Source of the DNA: Candidatus Aenigmatarchaeota archaeon
Lineage (GTDB): Archaea; Aenigmatarchaeota; Aenigmatarchaeia; CG10238-14; SCSR01
DNA: 64,000 nucleotides
Direction: 5' to 3'
NCBI GenBank assembly: GCA_039090665.1
Contig: JAWCSL010000001.1
Span: 1-64,000 of the forward strand
In this document: one piece after another, positions 35,745 to 47,628 of the stretch
Layout: each line of letters starts with the position of its first letter
Numbering within the stretch: the first letter of the stretch is position 1
The notes under the pieces: model-generated
Databases searched by the model: none
What the model was told of the DNA's origin: nothing
The model's input: the letters and a program-made list of their open reading frames with translations, nothing else
Position numbers and translations under genes: made by a program

Positions 35745-35851
35745 GCTGGCGTGGATTAGCCTGGCTAAATCGCGGCGCTCATAGCATCTATGAGCTTTGA
35801 TAAAGGATGAAAGAAACGCCGAGATCGCGGGTTCAAATCCCGCCGCCAGCA
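35745..35851 (+). tRNA. tRNA-Met(CAT), probably elongator, with 32-nt intron at 37/38 (35784-35815)
   Basis: acceptor GCTGGCG/CGCCAGC; anticodon arm CGGCG-CTCATA^A-CGCCG; GGTTCAAATCC T-arm. Confidence 0.9.
35784..35815 (+). ncRNA. tRNA-Met intron carrying a box D'/C' guide for C34
   Basis: CTATGAGC pairs with GCTCATAG (35777-84); TTGA and ATGAAAG boxes; N+5 = C34. Confidence 0.75.
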
Positions 35852-38703: not shown

Positions 38704-39603
38704 TACTGAGTTATATTATTTATTTGCTCATGGGTCTTGGCGTTGGGCTTTTGATCAAGTCAAACAAGACATGAGATGAAATAGCCTATTCTGACTCATG
38801 AGATATTGGCCTGAAGTGAAAGAGCTTCAGGTAGGTTGATTGGTGAAACCTAGAGGTAGGGCCCGCCAATTCTGGTTGATCCCGCCAGAGGCCACTGCTA
38901 TCCGGCTTCGACTAAGCCATGCGAGTCGAGAGGGGAAAGCCCTCGGCGCACTGCTCCGTAATACACAGTCAACCTACCCTTAGCTGGGGGATAATCCCGG
39001 GAAACTGGGGCTAATACCCCATAGGTGCTAGGTACTGGAAGGTCCTAGCGCCGAAAGCTCCGGCGGCTAAGGATGGGACTGTGGCCTATCAGCTTGTTGT
39101 GGAGGTAAAGGCTCCACAAGGCGATAACGGGTACGGGCTATGGAAGTAGGAGCCCGGAGATGGACTCTGAGACATGAGTCCAGGTACTACGGTACGCAGC
39201 AGGCGCGAAAACTTCTCAATGCTCGCAAGAGCGAAGAGGGAAGCCGGAGTGCCCTTGCTCTGCAAGGGCTTTTGCGGTCTGAAAACGGGACCGCGAATAA
39301 GGGGTGGGTAAGACGGGTGCCAGCCGCCGCGGTAATACCCGCGCCCCGAGTGGTGGCCACGATTATTGGGCCTAAAGCGTCCGTAGCCGGTCTGGTAAGT
39401 CCTCAGTGAAATCCTCTAGCAAACTAGAGGGCTTGCTGGGGATACTGCCAGACTTGAGACTGGGAGGGGGCAGGGGTACTCCCAGGGTAGGGGTGAAATC
39501 CTGTAATCCTGGGGGGACCACCTGTGGCGAAGGCGCCTGCCTGGAACAGGTCTGACGGTGAGGGACGAAAGCTAGGGGAGCGATCGGGATTAGATACCCC
39601 GGT

Positions 39604-39682
39604 ACACGAGGTTGGGTATCTTCTGATTTAAAGATGAAGAAAAATCCCAACTCAAGCTAGGATTTCCTAACTCGTGCGGGAA
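39604..39682 (+). ncRNA. 16S BHB intron 1 (after Ec U801) with K-loop and antisense elements
   Basis: CCCG/CGGG helix, GTA and AAA bulges; removal restores GATACCCCGGTAGTCC. Confidence 0.9.
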
Positions 39683-40082
39683 AGTCCTAGCCGTAAACGA
39701 TGCCCGCTTGGTGTTGCAAGCTTCTCGGGAGCTTGCAGTGCCGAAGCGTAGGTGTTAAGCGGGCCGCCTGGGGAGTACGCCCGCAAGGGTGAAACTTAAG
39801 GGAATTGGCGGGGGAGCACACAAGGGGTGGGCGTTGCGGTTCAATTGGATTCAACGCCGGAAATCTTACCAGGGCCGACGGCAGGATGAAGGTCAGTCTG
39901 AAGGGCTTACCAGACGAGCCGAGAGGTGGTGCATGGCCATCGTCAGCTCGTACCGTGAGGCGTGCGCTTAAGTGCGTTAACGAGCGAGACCCACACCCCA
40001 TGTTGCTAACTGCTTCTCCGGAAGCAGTGCACTCATGGGGGACCGCTGGCGATAAGCCAGAGGAAGGAGTGGGCGACGGTAG

Positions 40083-40170
40083 ACAGGTAAAAGGCTCAAG
40101 ACCGATTCATGTGAAAAAAAGATGAGCATGAATATCGCCCAGAGCCGTACATGTCTTTTACCTGACCGAA
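40083..40170 (+). ncRNA. 16S BHB intron 2 (after Ec 1197), H/ACA-like hairpin
   Basis: CGGT/ACCG helix, AGA and AAG bulges; removal restores GACGGTAGGTCCGTATG. Confidence 0.9.
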
Positions 40171-40451
40171 GTCCGTATGCCCCGAATGCCCTGGGCCACA
40201 CGCGACGCACAATGCGCGCCACAATGGGATGCGACCCCGAAAGGGGAAGCAAAGCCCCTAAAAGCGCGCTCAGTTCGGATCGAGGGCTGTAACTCGTCCT
40301 CGTGAAGCTGGAATCCCTAGTAAGCGAACGTCATCATCGTTCGCTGAATACGTCCCTGCTCCTTGCACACACTGCCCGTCAAGCCAATCGAGCGGAACTC
40401 CATCGAGGCTTGCGATGAGCAAGTCGAGTTGGAGTTCTGTGAGAGGGGCTA

Positions 40452-40557
40452 ATCTTGGGGGTCCAGAAAAAAATAATATGAAAGAATTGGCTTGACTCTG
40501 ATGTGATGATGAGATGGAGGTGAGTTGATTGCTTGTATGGACCTCCCAAGAGCCTAA
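40452..40557 (+). ncRNA. 16S intron 3 (between Ec A1492/A1493) containing a full box C/D sRNA
   Basis: GGGC/GCCT helix, TAA and AAA bulges; removal restores GGGGCTAAGTCG; C, D', C' and D boxes present. Confidence 0.9.
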
Positions 40558-40832
40558 AGTCGCCACAAGGTAGCCGTACGGGAACGTGCGGCTGGATCAC
40601 CTCCTTACGTGCAACCCTACCTCAGGCACCATAAACAACCCTACCTGAAAGAATTTTCCTTTTTATCAGTACCAAAGTAAAAAAAATTAAGCTCGAATCT
40701 TTACCATTATCCTCAAATTTTTCAATTCTTTTCTTAAACTGTTTTCAAAAAGCTTGTGTTAACTAAAAACTAAAATAAATGAGAGAAAAATAGCTACCGA
40801 GCTTATAAAATAATAAAAATTGGGAAACCATT

Positions 40833-42851
40833 TCAAGCAAGAATAGCATATCTAGCGATCAAAGAAGCAAAGACAGAAGCTGTTAAAGACATGACTGTTA
40901 TCATTGTGTTCAAACTTGGTCCTGCTGTGTCCTTGAAAGGATCACCAACAGTATCACCAACAACAGCAGCCTTATGAGCTTCTGAACCTTTTCCACCAAA
41001 AGCCCCTTCTTCTATCAGCTTCTTAGCATTGTCCCAAGCTCCACCAGAATTTGCCATGAAAAGAGCAAAAATTATTCCTGTGATTATACTTCCTGCTAAA
41101 AAGCCCGCTAAAGCCTCTTTTCCCAAAATGAAGCCAACAAGCAAAGGTGCAGCTATAGCAAGCAAACAAGGAAGCATAAGCTCTCTTAAAGCACCTTTAG
41201 TTGCTATGTCCACGCATTTGGCATAATCAGGTTTAGCTTTTCCTTTCATCAATCCAGGAATTTCTTTAAATTGCCTTCTCACTTCTTCTATCATACGAAA
41301 AGCATTTCTCCCTACTGCCAAAATCAATAAAGCCGAAATCACAGGAGGCATCATGCTACCAATAAAAGTCCCAACTATAACCTTAGGCTCCATCAAGTTT
41401 ATTGAAAACAAACCAGTAGTCAAATCTTTCCTTATTTCAACAACTTCAGCGTAAGCCCCAAGCAAAGCCAAAACTGTTAAAGCTGCAGCACCAATCGCGA
41501 AACCTTTTGTTATTGCTTTTGTTGTATTTCCCAAAGCATCAAGTCTGTCTGTAATTTCCAAGACTTTGCCTTTCAAACCAGCTTGTTCCGCTATTCCTTT
41601 TGCATTATCGACAATTGGACCATAAGCATCAGAAGAAATTATCATTCCAACTATTGCTAACATACCCACTGCTGCTATAGCCACACCATAAAGATTACTT
41701 ACACCGAAAGCCCCTGCAAGATGCCAAGCTGCAAGCATTGCTACACAAATTCCGATGATTGAAGGTACAATGCTCAAGATTCCATAAGAAAAGCCTGAGA
41801 GGATGTTGATAGCAGCTCCTGTTTTTGCAGCTTCTGCTGTTTTTTTCACAGGAGCTTTATCGATTGATGTATAGTAGTTTGTTGTTATTCCTATAATCAT
41901 GCCAGATATAAGTCCAGCTAAAGTTGGTAAGAGAACACCAAAAGTTTGGTTTCCAAGTTCAAGAGCTTGAATCACAAAAAATGTTAAAATTGCAAAAATA
42001 AAACAAGTGGAAAAGGTTCCAACATTCAACGCAAGATTAGGGTTCTTTTTCTTGGCCAAATTGACGAAAATTAAACCAAGAAGAGAGGAAAAAATCCCAG
42101 CAGCTGCTATCAACAAAGGCAAGAAGATAAAGCTTGGAGCAATTGCTTTCCCAATTATCATGGCAGCTATGATGCTTGCTATGTAAGAATCTATCAAGTC
42201 AGCACCCATTCCTGCAACATCACCCACATTATCACCCACATTATCAGCAATAACAGCAGGATTTCTTGGGTCATCTTCAGGAATTTCCATTTCCACTTTT
42301 CCCACCAAATCAGCTCCAATATCTGCTGTTTTAGTGTAAATGCCACCACCAGCTTTTGCAAACAAAGCCAAAGCACTTGCACCAAAGCTGAAACCCAAAA
42401 CAATCTCAGGATCTTGGTAAATTTGGTATAAAATGCTTATGCCAAGCAAAGCTATGCCAACTATCATTAAACCCATGATGGCCCCACCATAAAAACCAAC
42501 AGAAAAAGCTTTTGCTAATCCTTTTCTTGCTGCATTTGTAACCCTAACATTTGTTTTAACTGCTGCCAGCATTCCAAAGTAGCTTGCTATAGCAGTGGAA
42601 AAAGAGCCAAGCAAGTAGGCTAGAGCTATGTCTGGGCTTAAGAAGAGAAAAATAAGAGTTGTCATGATGACAACGAAAATTGCCAAATAAAGATTTTGCC
42701 TCTTCAAGTAAGCTTTTGCTCCCACTTTTATCGCTTCAGAAATTTCTTCCATTTTTTTGGTTCCCGGGCTTTGTTTGCTCACATGGAAATACAAGTAACA
42801 AGCTGTGAAGATCGAAGCTAAGCCTGCGATTGTTGGGATTGAAGCAAACAT
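40833..42851 (-). CDS. hppA: membrane-integral pyrophosphatase (GNTTKA, K+-independent type)
   Basis: [39 protein letters not shown]. Confidence 0.96.
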
Positions 42852-42908
42852 GAAATCACGATATATAAAAATTTTGTTCGATGATAACTTAAATTTTAAA
42901 CCATAAGA

Positions 42909-43320
42909 TTAAGTTAAGTAGTGCCTACATATTTCTAAAACTTTCCTACATTTTTCACACAAAAAATTCTCTATCCTTAAGTTAGAAGGATTGATTGACC
43001 AAAGATATTCGACCAACTCTTCGACCTTACTATAAGGATACATTAAACACTTGTATTTGTAATCTGGCTCATAATGATGAGTCAATCCGAATTTATTTTC
43101 AGCTATTTCATGTAAAAACCCGCAACTCAAAAATCTCTTCTTGATTTCTAAATATTGATTTGAAATAAAGAAAGTAGATAAATAAATTGACAAATAACTT
43201 TCTTTATCGATTTCTAATATGTTAGAAGCTGCCCAGCTCTTAAGGCCTCTCTCAAGAAAGTGATACGGAACTTCAGATCCTTCTGTGTAAAAGAATGGGC
43301 CGTAAAGTAATAATTTTCAT
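42909..43320 (-). pseudogene. hypothetical gene with apparent +1 frameshift just after the ATG
   Basis: ATGAAAATTATTA: removing one A opens a frame (MKLLLYGPFFY...) continuous with ORF 42909-43193. Confidence 0.5.
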
Positions 43321-43347
43321 TCCACACTATTAAGTTATTCTTTTTAT

Positions 43348-43696
43348 TTATGAAAGGTAAAACCAAGTCGAAAATCTCATTAAATTACAGGAGTGTTGAT
43401 CTTCATAAGTTTCTTTTGCCAATTTCAGTATTTTTTCTTTTGAATCTAATCCATATTTTCTAAGGATTTTCCAATTTTCTTCAGTTAGATTTCCAATTGA
43501 ACTTTCTGTAAGCTGAAGAAAAATTTTCTTTCCTTCTTCAGTTTCTTTGCAATTATCGGAAATTCTAATTTCCAATTGGAAAATTATTTTCAAGAAGAGT
43601 TTTCTTCAAAATATCTTCTAGTTCTCCATTTCTTTTTTCCACTAATATATCAAACCTTCTCATATTTTATCTGTAATATTTCTTCTGTCAAATCAT
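43348..43696 (-). pseudogene. hypothetical gene interrupted by single-base insertions
   Basis: frames join as ...YEKV-DILVEKRNGELEDILKK...FPI-EIRISDNCK... after removing single duplicated bases. Confidence 0.45.
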
Positions 43697-43786
43697 TTTT
43701 TTCAAAAAATCTATTTAGAGTAAGAAATTTTAAAAAATATAAAGAATTTAGTTTAAGTTCACAATTATTTAATACCAGCTCAAAAC

Positions 43787-43858
43787 GGGCCGGTAGATCA
43801 ATGGTAGATCGCCTCGCTTGCAACGAGGAGGCTCCGGGTTCAAATCCCGGCCGGTCCA
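43787..43858 (+). tRNA. tRNA-Ala(TGC)
   Basis: GGGCCGG/CCGGTCC acceptor with G3:U70; CCTCG-CTTGCAA-CGAGG. Confidence 0.96.
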
Positions 43859-43885
43859 TCAATGAAATTTTATTAAATTTAAATT

Positions 43886-43900
43886 CGAAATCTTTATAAA
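43886..43900 (+). promoter_or_regulatory. BRE/TATA promoter of the 23S unit
   Basis: CGAAA-TC-TTTATAAA ~25 nt before a GCCGGTG...CATCGGC hairpin. Confidence 0.6.
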
Positions 43901-43973
43901 TACAAAATACAACTTATTTATTTGCCGGTGTCAGTATGTCTGCTTAATTCGAGCATCGGCTTTCTTTATTTTA

Positions 43974-44033
43974 GCGATGAGCTTTGTCTTTCTCTGCTGA
44001 CAAAAAAGATGAAGATGTGGACACCTTGTGAGC
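43974..44033 (+). ncRNA. candidate box C/D sRNA in the 23S leader (A)
   Basis: C ATGAGCT 43977, D' CTGA 43997, C' ATGAAGA 44009, D GTGA 44028; 12-13 nt spacers. Confidence 0.65.
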
Positions 44034-44080
44034 AAGCTGCATGCAACTCCTTATTGAAAGAATAAGGGGTGAAGAGTGGA

Positions 44081-44141
44081 GGTTGATGATAACATTTATT
44101 CGCCTGAAAAAAGATGAAGAGCGAACTGTCTATTTGAAACC
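44081..44141 (+). ncRNA. box C/D sRNA in the 23S leader (B)
   Basis: GGTT/AACC terminal stem; C ATGATAA, D' CTGA, C' ATGAAGA, D TTGA; guides match 16S 39293-301 and 23S 47193-202. Confidence 0.82.
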
Positions 44142-46181
44142 ATAAGATGACACTACCACAGGATCAAGGAGGTCACTAAGGCCTAACAAGCTGACCCCAC
44201 TTGGTGGATAGCTTGGCTTCGGAGCCGAAGAAGTACGTGGCAAGCTGCGATAAGCCTGGGGTAGCCGCATGCAGGCGTAGATCCCAGGATCTATGAATGC
44301 GAATCGCTGGCTTCGGCCAACTCCGAAAGGAGGGGGAACGCGCTGAATTGAAGCATCTTAGTAGGCGCAGGAAAAGAAATCAAATTGAGATGCCGTTAGT
44401 AGGGGCGACCGAAAGCGGCAGAGGGCAAACCGAACTGGTTGGCGAAGAGCCAAACAGGATGTGGAGTTGTAGGACCTGTGTCCTTCCTATCCTAGCCGAC
44501 CTGAAGTCTGCTGGAAAGCAGCGCCAAAGAGGGTGATAGCCCCGTAAGGGAAGGCTAGGAGGAAGATGGCAGGTATCCTGAGTACCATTTCCTGGATGGG
44601 AAGTGGGAAGCTGGGTGAATTAACATCCAACCCTAAATACTCCCGAAGTCCGATAGCGAACTAGTATGGTGACAGAAAGCTGAAAAGCACCGCGAAAGCG
44701 GGGTGAAAAGAGCTTGAAACCAAGTGGGGATAGTCAGACACGGCCCGGAAGGTGCTCCTTCGAATGAAATCCGAAAGGAGAGTAAGAGAAGGAGCTTACA
44801 GGGTCGTGTCGTCCGTGCGGAAACACGGGGCAGGGAGTTTGTCTCAGTGGTGAGGTTAACTTGCTTTCACAAGGTAGCCGGAGCGAAAGCGATTAGCCCG
44901 CAACTGTTCTTTATGGACAGTGAGGGGCAGGGTATGAAAGTGCCTGAAATCACTGGGACAAGACCCGAAGCCAGGCGATCTAACCCTGGGTAAGGCGAAG
45001 TCCCTCGAAAGGGGGATGGAAGCCTGCTACCGGTGCTGAGTTACAAATCGCTCGGGTGACCTGGGGTTAGTGGTGAAAAGCCTAACGAGCCTGGCGATAG
45101 CTGGTTCCTCCCCAAATGCACGTCAGTGCAGCCTGGTCGGAGGTAGGCAATGGGGTAGAGCTACTGATTGGAAGGTCAAGGACCGAAAGGTTCAGCCTTC
45201 CTGTCAAACTCCGAATCCATTGCCACCTGAGAAGACCGGAGTGAGGGTGCTGGGGTAAGCTCGGCACTCGAAAGGGGAACAACCCAGCCTAGGGTTAAGG
45301 TCCCTAAATGCTAGCTAAACGCTGAAGGGTGTCTGAACCCTCAGACAGTAGGGCTGTAGGCTTAGAAGCAGCCATCAGATAATAAGTGCGTAACAGCTTA
45401 CCTACCGAGGGTTCGGGCCCCGAAAATGGAAGGGACTAAGCTAGCTACCGATACCCTAGACCGCGAAAGCGGGGGTAGGGAGGCGTCCTGCATGGGCAGA
45501 AGCCTCTGCGTGAGCAGGGGTGGACCGTGCAGGATTGAAGATCCTGCCGAAAGTAACAGCAAAGTTAGGTGAGAATCCTAACCACCTGAAGCCTAAGGGT
45601 TTGCCAGCAATGTTGGTCAGCTGGCAGTTAGCCGGTCCTAAGGGTGCTCTTAACCGAAGCACTCGAAAGGGAAAGCCGTTAATATTCGGCTGCCATGGGG
45701 ATACGTGCGGCGACGCAAGCCAGTTTTCCGACGCTTCGGGATAGGCAGACGCAAGCTAACTGCCGAAGTGAGCGGAGTCTCTTAATGAGGAGAAGCTCAT
45801 GAAGGCAGGAATGGCTCCTCGTATGAGGAGTTCTGCTGATTCCTGGAGCCCGTGAAAAGGAAAACTGGAAGGATTCCCCATGACCGTACCGAGAACCGAC
45901 ACAGGTAGGCTTGCCGAGAAGGCAAAGGTGTGTTGGGAGAACCCAGCCTAGGGAAATCGGCAAGTTGGCCCCGTATCTTCGGTAGAAGGGGTGCCTGTTC
46001 TCTCGCAAGGGAGAGCAGGTCGCAGTGACAAGGGGGAAGCGACTGTTTAACAAAAACGCTGGAGACCGCAAGTCCGAAAGGATGTGTACGGTCTCTGATG
46101 CCTGCCCAGTGCCGGTGTGTGAAAGCCCGGTTCAACGGGAAGAAGCCCCGGCAAACGGCGGCGGTAACTCTGACCGTCGTA

Positions 46182-46231
46182 ACTCAAGGCGGTCATTTGA
46201 TTTAATGATATTCCGCTGCCTTGGGCGGCAT
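46182..46231 (+). ncRNA. 23S intron (after Ec A1927) with D'/C' guide for H69
   Basis: GTCG/CGGC helix, TAA and ATA bulges; GGCGGTCA antisense to 46171-78. Confidence 0.85.
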
Positions 46232-46360
46232 AAGTAGCGTAATCCCTTGCCGTTTAAATGACGGCCCGTCTGAACGGCTTAACGACTTCCCCACTGTCCT
46301 GGGCTGGGACCCAGTGAACTCGCCTTTCCGGTGAATAGGCCGGAGACCTCCTGTGGGAAA

Positions 46361-46391
<31 letters not shown>

Positions 46392-46545
46392 GTGTTGTGG
46401 TAAGGTTGTGACTGCATAGAGTAGGTAGGACTCGCTATTAGGCTGAGGCTTCGGCCGAAAGCTGAGAGGAAAGTGTAACACTACCCTTTCGCAACCTTAC
46501 CGCTAACTCGAAAGAGGACAGCACCAGATGGGCAGTTCGGCTGGG

Positions 46546-46631
46546 AGTCTAGAAGTCTAAATGAGGAGTCCCTTAAGTTATGATTTTTTATGATTAAGGG
46601 CATACGAACCGAAAGGCTTCTAGACCAGCAA
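46546..46631 (+). ncRNA. 23S P-loop intron (Ec G2252/G2253) containing a full box C/D sRNA targeting 16S
   Basis: GCTG/CAGC helix, GGA and AAG bulges; removal restores GGCTGGGGCGG. Confidence 0.93.
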
Positions 46632-46686
46632 GCGGTACGCCCTCGGTAAAGGATCGAGGGCGCCCAAAGGTCAGCTCATCCGGGTC

Positions 46687-46775
46687 ATGGTAGAGTCTAG
46701 TAAATGATTGGACCGTTCCAGAATGATCTTAATGATTTCTGAGGTAGCTGATGAGAATAGGCTCTACCACCCGCA
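46687..46775 (+). ncRNA. 23S H84 intron (after Ec ~C2306) containing a box C/D sRNA
   Basis: CGGG/CCCG helix, TCA and CAA bulges; removal restores CCGGGTCAGAAATCCGG. Confidence 0.9.
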
Positions 46776-46919
46776 AGAAATCCGGAGTAGAGTGTAAGCG
46801 CAAAAGCTGGCCTGACTGGATTCCGCAAAGCGAGGAATCCAGCCGCGAAAGCGTGGGCTAGCGATACTTCGGTTCCTCTTAATGGGGGCCGGAGGTATCA
46901 GAAAAGCTACCTCGGGGAT

Positions 46920-46973
46920 AAACTAGCTAGGGCTGATTAAATTATTTTTCTTCATATCTAGCTAGTTCCCTAA
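46920..46973 (+). other. 23S hairpin intron after Ec U2449
   Basis: GGGG/CCCT helix, ATA and AAA bulges, 10-bp AACTAGCTAG stem; removal restores GGGGATAA. Confidence 0.88.
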
Positions 46974-47001
46974 AATGGGCCCGTGGCCGGCGAAAGCCCA
47001 C

Positions 47002-47072
47002 TGCTCGAAGGGGTTTTTCGTCCCAAAGATAGCGAGCCTCGGGTTCTGAACTCGAGCCCTTCGCGCGGGTAA
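47002..47072 (+). ncRNA. 23S H89 intron (after Ec ~2477) with antisense elements to the PTC
   Basis: GCCC/GGGT helix, ACT and AAA bulges; removal restores GCCCACATTGACCC. Confidence 0.88.
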
Positions 47073-47628
47073 ATTGACCCGGCGCGTTGGTGCGTCGATG
47101 TTGGCTCCCCCTCTCCTGGCCGTGCAGCAGCGGCCAAGGGTACAGGTGCCCACTGGTTAAAAGGGGACGCTAGCTGAGTTCAGAACGTCGTGAGACAGTT
47201 CGGTCGCTATCTACAGGAGGTGCTGGTCGTCTGACCGGAAGGAAGGGTTAGTACGAAAGGAACACCCTTCCGTGGCCTCTGGTCTACCGGTTGTCCATTT
47301 GGCATCGCCGGGCAGCCAAGCCATACGTGGATAAGAGCTGAATGCATCTAAGCTCGAAACCACCCGGAAAAATAGACGACCACTCTTGCTACTGGTGCGC
47401 AAGCATCGGTGGCAAGACGAAGGCCCCTGTAGACTACAGGTTTGATAGGGGAGAGGTGTAAGCCTCAAGCTTTCGAGCGAGAGGCGAGCCTGCTCCTACT
47501 AAAAGCCTGAGTTGTTAGGCCTTGATAAGCTCCTTGATCCTGTGGTAGTGTGAAAAAATTCTGATTCTCCCAAAAATATATACTAGAGTAGAGAAAACTT
47601 ATTTAATTGTCACTACATAGTAGTTATT

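Follow-up and report, generated by a model that had tools for sequence, protein, structure and literature searches.

Eukaryotic intronic small nucleolar RNAs (snoRNAs) reside in spliceosomal introns of genes transcribed by RNA polymerase II, and they are released by debranching and exonucleases. In the archaea, the intron of the euryarchaeal pre-tRNA-Trp carries a C/D guide RNA (Clouet d'Orval et al., 2001; Singh et al., 2004; both via the accessible part of PMC7994747). In that part of this 2021 review, guide RNAs are placed only in tRNA introns, adjacent to tRNA genes, between genes or overlapping genes. Introns of archaeal ribosomal RNA (rRNA) genes are described from Desulfurococcus, Staphylothermus, Pyrobaculum and the Thermoproteales, as carriers of homing endonucleases or as non-coding (available portions of PMC3608112 and PMC4496867). 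The subject of this report is the pair of rRNA genes in a stretch of 64,000 nucleotides (the window), which is positions 1 to 64,000 of contig JAWCSL010000001.1 in the Candidatus Aenigmatarchaeota archaeon assembly GCA_039090665.1. These genes contain eight introns with bulge-helix-bulge (BHB) splice sites. Six of the eight very probably host predicted guide RNAs, in cassettes that would have existed before as genes and appear to be mobile between BHB introns. To our knowledge, archaeal rRNA introns without an open reading frame (ORF) have no assigned function, and their persistence at the decoding centre, the P-loop and the peptidyl-transferase centre is unexplained.

The eight introns of the rRNA genes

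The window is contig C1 of a 15-contig assembly of 620,606 bases with a completeness of 90.6%, and matches to it were found in hot-spring metagenome runs. The host is a small-genome DPANN archaeon. All features given below are on the plus strand unless stated otherwise. The 16S rRNA gene (38869..40605; Rfam SSU_rRNA_archaea, 1297 bits) has three introns and a length of 1737 nt, compared with 1478 positions in the Rfam model. The 23S rRNA gene (44179..47522; Rfam LSU_rRNA_archaea, 2578 bits) has five introns and a length of 3344 nt, compared with 2987 positions. The excess over the Rfam models is about 260-360 nt for both genes. A 672-amino-acid ORF on the minus strand (40833-42851) separates the two genes, and therefore they are separate, unlinked units.

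Intron borders were obtained by blastn against the 23S loci of 29 relatives, by flank-anchored extraction and by a BHB scan. The pattern of the scan was an outer helix, a 4-bp helix, 3-nt bulges and a cut after the second bulge nucleotide. Escherichia coli (Ec) numbering was taken from a MAFFT alignment of the spliced genes to rrsH and rrlH of E. coli K-12, blastn of one exon against E. coli genomes having given no match. In the 16S gene, intron S1 (39604..39682, 79 nt) is at Ec 801/802, S2 (40083..40170, 88 nt) is at Ec 1197/1198, and S3 (40452..40557, 106 nt) lies between A1492 and A1493. In the 23S gene, intron A (46182..46231, 50 nt) is at Ec 1927/1928, B (46546..46631, 86 nt) lies between G2252 and G2253, C (46687..46775, 89 nt) is at Ec 2306/2307, D (46920..46973, 54 nt) lies between U2449 and A2450, and E (47002..47072, 71 nt) is at Ec 2477/2478.

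A 3-4-3 core, consisting of a 4-bp central helix and two 3-nt bulges, was found by the BHB scan in all eight introns, and a cut after the second bulge nucleotide gives back the conserved rRNA exon each time. Intron E has an inner helix of only 2 bp, its flanking helices amounting to 2+2 bp, and the other seven introns have one of 6-12 bp. The outer exon-exon helix beside the bulge has 0-3 bp (0 for S3, A and D), and several of the introns are therefore relaxed BHB forms. The central helix tracks the exon in loci L012 and L099, where GAGG stands with CTTC. Individual introns are missing from relatives precisely at the predicted junctions. A first-pass annotation of the window had described eight ORF-less introns of 50-106 nt, with a 4-bp helix, two 3-nt bulges and a restored exon register, at Ec 801, 1197, 1492, 1927, 2252, 2306, 2449 and 2477. 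The same eight introns were recovered from the breakpoints against relatives and the BHB scan, the described structure was seen in 8/8, and every site matches the alignment.

Some exons at intron sites have unusual letters. Directly after S3, a universally conserved 16S site (40558-40571, AAGTCGCCACAAGG) has C C in place of Ec U1498 A1499. At a universally conserved 23S site around intron D (46914-46979, GGGGATAATGGG), Ec C2452 A2453 are U G, and this altered wording is common to the relatives at the D site. The 16S genes of relatives (loci L040-L068) have extra introns elsewhere, with breakpoints near window positions 39863 and 39935-39945 for example, as well as long inserts of several hundred bases.

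Predicted guide RNAs within the introns

Introns S3, B and C each contain a complete C-D'-C'-D unit, located between the arms of the inner BHB helix. The S3 unit is composed of box C (40478-40484), the D' guide (40485-40497), box D' (40498-40501), box C' (40506-40512), the D guide (40513-40524) and box D (40525-40528). The same order is seen in B (C 46561-46567, guide 46568-46579, D' 46580-46583, C' 46590-46596, guide 46597-46608, D 46609-46612) and in C (C 46704-46710, guide 46711-46722, D' 46723-46726, C' 46732-46738, guide 46739-46750, D 46751-46754). The guide spacers are 13/12 nt in S3 and 12/12 nt in both B and C, and the D'-C' loops are 4-6 nt. The box pairs are ATGAAAG/TTGA and ATGATGA/CTGA in S3, ATGAGGA/CCGA and ATGATTA/ATGA in B, and ATGATTG/ATGA and ATGATTT/ATGA in C. 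In every pair, position 6 of the C box pairs with position 1 of the D box and position 5 faces position 2, which is the requirement of a kink-turn (K-turn). The three complete units with spacers of about 12 nt confirm what the first-pass annotation had read, as do the D'/C' kink-loop (K-loop) units that it had seen in two introns, which are S1 and A. The box pairs that it had described as co-varying (ATGAGGA/CCGA, ATGAAAG/TTGA and ATGATTA/ATGA) are present and pair at C6:D1 and C5:D2.

A scan of the whole genome for the C/D architecture gave 16 matches on 1.24 Mb of strands, and five shuffles gave 0, 0, 2, 3 and 5. Three full architectures fall within the introns, for whose total of 633 nt about 0.006 were expected. 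The five of the 16 matches that have the best rRNA complementarity are all inside the rRNA transcription units of this 0.62-Mb genome. A scan that started from the guides was abandoned in favour of the architecture scan, since exact rRNA complements of at least 10 nt are too common (3014).

The pairing of each guide with the spliced rRNAs was given a score, for which 300 shuffles served as the comparison. N+5 below is the nucleotide opposite the fifth guide position. The D' guide of S3 has 11 Watson-Crick bp with 40378..40388 (16S 1405-1415; 1/300 shuffles), with N+5 at A1408. Its D guide includes GGAGGTGA, the complement of the 16S 3' end, and has 8 bp with 40597..40604 (TCACCTCC), with N+5 at C1535. 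Both guides of intron B match the 16S rRNA. The D' guide has 11 Watson-Crick bp with 39793..39803 (16S 908-918; 4/300; N+5 at Ec 912), and the D guide has 9 Watson-Crick bp with 40174..40182 (16S about 1201-1209; 28/300; N+5 at Ec 1203). In intron C, the D' guide has 10 bp, two of them G-U, with the P-loop sequence CUGGG^GCGGU (46541-46545 + 46632-46636; 38/300; N+5 at G2251), and this target spans the spliced junction of intron B. The D guide of intron C has 11 bp, 10 of them Watson-Crick, with 46905..46915 (23S 2435-2445; 9/300; N+5 at U2438). Thus five of the six guides have 9-11 bp that are equalled by 1-38 of 300 shuffles, and the sixth has 8 conserved bp. In an unbiased scan of all intron words, it is the guide slots that contain the longest rRNA complements found in S3, B and C. 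A single 11-nt rRNA complement arises in about 3% of whole-intron shuffles, and therefore it is position and conservation that carry weight. The P-loop guanosine G2251 is ribose-methylated in bacteria and eukaryotes. Guided methylation of its equivalent was predicted in three archaea (Dennis et al., 2015; accessible part of PMC4644070).

Intron C is the best-supported of the introns, because its unit is homologous to a family of free-standing, canonically boxed C/D small RNAs (sRNAs). The intron with its whole unit is present in 14 of the 22 relatives' loci with a readable site; two others have longer inserts that also hold the unit, and six have no insert. Among the 14 orthologs, 11 of the 12 pairs of the terminal stem have changed on both sides, and 97% of the cells pair. 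The C6:D1 pair is UA in 11, AU in one and GC in one, and D'1:C'6 is AU in nine and UA in four. None of five measures of covariation was reached by any of 500 shuffles (0/500), and when the partner was slid by 1-3 columns the pairing dropped from 88% to 40-49%. Covariation in the introns of relatives, a check proposed in the first-pass annotation, is thus found in both the stem and the K-turn pairs of intron C. Guide and target have also changed together in L016, which has the P-loop GGGGTGG with the guide CCACTCC, where others have GGGGCGG with CCGCTCC.

A pattern scan for the intron-C unit was run GTDB-wide with one genome per species, and the loci with archaeal titles were used among the matches listed. 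Most of the 80 matches listed are chance matches in bacteria. Fourteen have archaeal titles, and 13 of these hold the unit, five inside a 23S gene and eight outside rRNA. The remaining one, L100 (Nitrososphaerota), is a chance match with no intron-C unit. The units outside rRNA among these matches have canonical boxes (GATGATGA ... CTGA ... ATGATGA ... CTGA) and are in records titled Micrarchaeota, Aenigmatarchaeota or plain archaeon. One free-standing homolog (L106) aligns end to end with Rfam sR1 (E = 6.9e-6; 33 bits, with a gathering score of 45). A covariance model of the unit (R1) has exactly one match each in 51 of 151 genomes of the class. Of 29 such places inspected, 8 are at the 23S intron site, in the host's own family and one genome of a sister family, and 21 are elsewhere. 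Rfam identified no tRNA or rRNA around any of the eight tested loci that lie elsewhere. The box pairs at these other loci vary and yet pair when read by hand (GGGA/ATGACCG, CCGA/ATGAGGA, GTGA/ATGAGCG and TTGA/ATGAAAA). Of five relatives without intron C that were also searched with R1, four carry a copy elsewhere. Judged by homology and covariation, intron C carries a member of a genuine guide RNA family. In most families of the class this guide is free-standing, and in the host's family its single copy is intronic.

At the identical site, the S3 unit was found in 5 of the 12 relatives' loci that could be read, and another five genomes have it in an intron that lies nine bases downstream. In other genera, the cassette occupies two other positions close to the 3' end of the 16S gene. 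In total it was found in 15 of 121 class genomes, all from two families within one order. Five genomes, four of the sister family and one of the host's family, have the cassette far from the 16S gene. At four of the five, Rfam shows a tRNA gene of 148-159 nt around the cassette, which therefore sits in a tRNA intron. ARAGORN gave no tRNA in 26 loci, including the four intron-bearing tRNAs found by Rfam, and its negatives are uninformative there. Of the 16 relatives' loci that could be read at its site, 2 have intron B. Among 301 genomes of the class it was found in 4, and all belong to the same family. The guides are invariant among the orthologs, and C5:D2 runs through GC, GU and AU. No free-standing homolog of the B unit with the exact pattern was found in the 301 class genomes. 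It appears that guide cassettes move between hosts, from free-standing genes to tRNA introns and rRNA introns. To the first-pass annotation this adds that, judged by homology, relatives have the same cassettes in free-standing genes and in tRNA introns.

Introns S1 and A contain half units. S1 has a guide at 39614-39622 (GGGTATCTT), a D' box CTGA at 39623-39626 and a C' box ATGAAGA at 39634-39640. The guide is conserved and pairs by 8 bp with its own 5' exon (39592-39599), with N+5 at U793. The hairpin tip is a CTGA-7 nt-ATGAAGA K-loop and covariation is good across the S1 family, two members of which possess an additional second guide and D box. Intron A has a guide at 46186-46196, a D' box TTGA at 46197-46200 and a C' box ATGATAT at 46205-46211, which form the hairpin tip TTGA-4 nt-ATGATAT. 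Read by hand, its guide, which is likewise conserved, pairs by 8 bp, one of them G-U, with its own 5' exon (46171-46178), with N+5 at C1920. The exon targets of S1 and A overlap the exon strand of the BHB central helix, and therefore guide pairing and BHB formation are mutually exclusive. A similar half unit with a K-loop was found in the intron, of about 32 nt, of a tRNA-Met(CAT) gene (35745..35851), which was identified by Rfam and missed by ARAGORN. This half unit reads …CTATGAGCT-TTGA-TAAAGG-ATGAAAG, and by hand reading its guide pairs with the anticodon loop, with N+5 at C34. The C34 of Pyrococcus tRNA-Met is listed as a guided site in the accessible part of the review PMC7994747.

In the H/ACA-like hairpin of intron S2, the outer stem is followed by a lower stem of 6 bp and a pocket of 7/8 nt (strands 40098-40105 and 40133-40141), above which an 8-bp upper stem carries a K-loop cap (GTGA 40111-40114 and ATGAGCA 40122-40128). 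The RNAalifold consensus has 22 pairs, 13 of them compensatory. The K-loop, GTGA-A7-ATGAGCA, covaries in L055, where ACGA stands with ATGAGTA. An ACA (40149-40151) is located two bases past the lower stem and about 16-17 nt from the upper stem, compared with some 14-16 nt in archaeal H/ACA sRNAs, and a further helix follows. The orthologs have ACA in the window, L040 and L041, ATA in L044 and AAA in L055. The pocket was scored against targets with 1 for a Watson-Crick pair and 0.5 for a G-U pair, and compared with 200 shuffles. In three relatives of the same genus it fits around 16S U950 by 7+6, 7+5 and 5+6 bp, with scores of 13, 11.5 and 11 that are reached by 0/200, 2/200 and 1/200 shuffles. 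The fit of the L044 pocket is not significant (158/200).

Intron D is a plain AT-rich hairpin that was seen only here, two relatives having unrelated inserts at the site. A C/D reading was ruled out, as the transcribed strand has a single CTGA and lacks a C box. Intron E has no guide boxes. It has an antisense core, AGATAGCGA (47027-47035), which is conserved and single-stranded, and its complement in the large-subunit rRNA (47204-47212; 23S 2609-2617) adjoins the peptidyl-transferase central loop. An insert is present at this site in 14 of 20 readable relatives' loci, and the exact core AGATAGCGA in 8 of the 14. An H/ACA reading of intron E was ruled out by the lack of an ACA and of a K-turn and by a non-U after the complementary stretch.

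Two further complete C/D units from the architecture scan lie outside the introns, in the leader of the 23S gene (43977..44031 and 44086..44137). Upstream of the 23S gene is a tRNA-Ala, followed by a promoter-like AT-rich stretch, and both units are placed between this stretch and the 23S processing stem. The D guide of the second unit has 10 bp with 47193-47202 of the large-subunit rRNA (about Ec 2598-2607). These units are kept in the 23S leaders of relatives from the same genus and from other genera. At the other end of the gene, the RNA-library contig X17 has the 23S 3' end (47522) joined to the 5' end (44178) via six letters. This joint has the form expected for a circular pre-23S intermediate, and a relative is possible as its source.

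A possible pathway and its alternatives

The genes in the assembly can indicate what would act on these introns. Fibrillarin and Nop5 are encoded by adjacent genes on contig C3, and EndA, RtcB, Cbf5 and Nop10 are also encoded. In the proposed pathway, EndA would cut each BHB and RtcB would ligate the exons and probably circularise the excised intron. The released intron would keep its inner helix of 9-12 bp as a terminal stem, with the box C/D K-turn beside it and the C'/D' K-loop further in, where L7Ae, Nop5 and fibrillarin could assemble. Base-pairing of the 12-nt guides with rRNA would then direct 2'-O-methylation to N+5. Predicted sites are G2251 and U2438 of 23S for intron C, 912 and 1203 of 16S for intron B, and A1408 and C1535 of 16S for intron S3. 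Since the two rRNA genes form separate units, any action of intron B has to be in trans. Through their half units, S1 and A may direct methylation to their own upstream exons (U793 and C1920), as the tRNA-Met half unit would to C34. The hairpin of S2 would serve Cbf5 and Nop10, and in relatives would address U950 of 16S. With guides made 1:1 with the pre-rRNA, the retention of introns at critical sites would be explained. This reading is based on sequence motifs, covariation, complementarity statistics, homology and gene content, from which we infer excision, assembly of ribonucleoproteins, methylation and circularisation.

A number of observations weigh against this reading. L7Ae (eL8) was not found in the 90.6%-complete assembly. 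It is present in all 29 relatives, including all seven of the host's genus, and therefore an assembly gap is the likely cause. The one match to the L7Ae-family domain Pfam PF01248 (C11:28733-29011) was rejected, as its translation is an L30e-like protein. Gar1 was not found in the assembly either. The intron units are below the Rfam gathering scores and their boxes are non-consensus. The interior of S3 has 24 bits against a gathering score of 45 with sR18 (E = 7.5e-4), and B and C have E > 2; the Rfam C/D families are species-specific sets, and the gathering score is thus a weak criterion. The D guide of S3 has only 8 bp and alone is not significant in the shuffle comparison (192/300). The D' guide of intron C has its two G-U pairs adjacent to each other and beside the target in this organism. 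The D' guide of intron B pairs by 7 bp with its own C'/D-guide region, which could sequester it. In intron A, the C'6:D'1 pair forms in only three of seven orthologs. The pocket of S2 has one mismatch too many in this organism and is not significant (70/200). The H/ACA architecture that had been assigned to one intron holds for the hairpin, the K-loop and the compensatory pairs, with a pocket fit that is significant only in relatives. The antisense elements of 8-11 nt to the organism's own rRNA hold for the six C/D guides (8-11 bp) and for S1 and A (8 bp). Introns D and E have no guide, and the comparison of predicted sites with known methylation was made for G2251 alone.

It is very improbable that the insertions stay unspliced in mature rRNA as expansion segments. 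BHB motifs are present at all eight sites, EndA and RtcB are encoded, retained insertions would split A1492/A1493, G2252/G2253 and U2449/A2450, and relatives lack individual insertions at the exact predicted junctions. Assembled contigs of three public RNA libraries and one DNA run were also searched at 92% likeness. The RNA-library contigs join the exons exactly at 40082/40171, 46545/46632 (in three runs), 46919/46974 and 47001/47073. For S2 and D, the DNA run shows the joint as well, and the joints may stem from intron-less relatives, most relatives lacking intron B; thus they confirm the junctions and not the splicing. Holes in coverage over the introns and the spacer have no evidential value. 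Even less credible is the idea that the boxes and complementarities are chance features of AT-rich hairpin introns. Single 11-nt complements do arise in shuffled introns and long exact complements are common in the genome, as given above, but the architecture itself is enriched far beyond expectation, boxes and guides are kept across genera, the K-turn covaries and the units are homologous to canonical sRNAs.

The function of the units can also be explained in other ways. The K-turns and antisense stretches might be mainly devices for assembly in cis. They would offer landing pads to L7Ae and, for as long as the intron is in place, clamp the decoding centre, the 16S 3' end, the 790 loop, H69 and the P-loop region, with methylation absent or incidental. 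In favour of this, S3, S1 and A pair with rRNA beside their own insertion sites, the pairing of S1 and A excludes their own BHB, intron E has a conserved antisense core without boxes, and chaperone roles for dual guides are proposed in the accessible part of Dennis et al. (2015; PMC4644070). Clamping is nevertheless unlikely as the main role, as the guides of intron B in the 23S gene target 16S and hence do not act in cis, the intron-C unit is a free-standing gene in most of the class, and a pure clamp would require neither the 12-nt spacers nor the N+5 register on G2251, both of which are kept. The guides might instead be real and their location in rRNA introns a neutral accident of cassette mobility, with no role in stoichiometry or in the retention of introns. 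The occurrence of the same cassettes in free-standing genes, tRNA introns and several rRNA intron positions agrees with this, as do the persistence of the guide-less introns D and E and the rarity of intron B in the class. This is a possible but doubtful explanation. The architecture matches with the best complementarity all fall within rRNA transcription units, and each matching genome has one R1 copy, so that loss of the intron would be loss of the Gm2251 guide.

With guide hosting as the preferred reading, the origin of the introns' cargo can be considered. Pre-existing guide RNA genes would have been placed into BHB introns and would be movable among the introns of tRNA and rRNA genes. This capture or relocation is favoured because the free-standing form is widespread and the S3 cassette is also in tRNA introns. 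The first-pass annotation had proposed that rRNA introns were domesticated as guides. The hosting of guides is backed for six of the eight introns, as many as that annotation had claimed, and by homology the direction looks like the capture of existing cassettes and not introns evolving guides. It can be suggested, only tentatively and with the odds somewhat against it, that BHB introns are the normal vehicles of hopping guide cassettes in this DPANN order, that essential guides lock introns in, and that a fixed order of assembly results. If so, a single-copy guide such as that for Gm2251 would make its host intron unlosable and fix introns at the functional centres of the ribosome. Splicing of intron B would have to precede the pairing of the intron C guide with the P-loop, and the guide-exon pairing of S1 and A would have to yield before their own BHBs form. 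The excised circular introns would be working snoRNP-like particles, and the whole would amount to an archaeal equivalent, based on an endonuclease, of the economy of intronic snoRNAs in eukaryotes.

Comparison with known systems

The hosting of C/D guides, and probably of H/ACA guides, in BHB introns of rRNA appears to be undescribed. No statement of a guide RNA inside an archaeal rRNA intron was found in the accessible full-text literature, with subscription journals and supplements outside this scope, and there was none in the available parts of the reviews PMC7994747 and PMC3608112 or of PMC4644070, PMC6009581, PMC4496867, PMC12918454 and PMC11270868. This agrees with the first-pass annotation, which was not aware of any description of such guides in rRNA introns.

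The known archaeal rRNA introns are similar in that they are BHB introns in conserved rRNA regions, and some are short and non-coding; the available portions of PMC3608112 and PMC4496867 assign no guide RNA content to them. The present introns provide ORF-less rRNA introns with a candidate cargo of methylation guides, and possibly pseudouridylation guides, that would be co-transcribed with their target rRNA. In DPANN archaea, neither the introns nor the guides are caught by annotation and 16S surveys.

Like the pre-tRNA-Trp guide as presented in the accessible part of PMC7994747, the guides described here are C/D guides in a BHB intron that would be released by the splicing endonuclease and that target host exons, and the half units of S1, A and the tRNA-Met intron are built in the same way. 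Unlike in pre-tRNA-Trp, the host is rRNA and there are several introns per gene, intron B would act on another rRNA, intron C would act across the splice junction of another intron, and the same cassettes are free-standing or in tRNA introns of relatives. The circular C/D box sRNAs of Pyrococcus and Thermococcus (accessible part of PMC7994747) are also C/D circles, and a BHB intron ligated by RtcB would give the same form. According to the available portion of PMC9014305, those circles require an ATP-dependent RNA ligase (Rnl) rather than BHB splicing. Intron C is most like the free-standing DPANN P-loop dual-guide C/D sRNA, with two guides, N+5 at G2251, 12-nt spacers and one copy per genome. 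That sRNA has a gene of its own, preceded by an AT-rich region, and its terminal stem is short, whereas the intron C unit lies between BHB arms.

As in eukaryotic intronic snoRNAs, the guides would come from introns of genes for ribosome production and be co-transcribed with their host. The parallel that the first-pass annotation had drawn therefore stands as a functional analogy and not as membership, since the introns are BHB and not spliceosomal, lie in the rRNA itself and would be released by EndA. The single known archaeal intronic case, that of tRNA-Trp, would thus be extended to rRNA, with a predicted order of splicing and modification, as a prokaryotic parallel to the intronic snoRNAs of eukaryotes.

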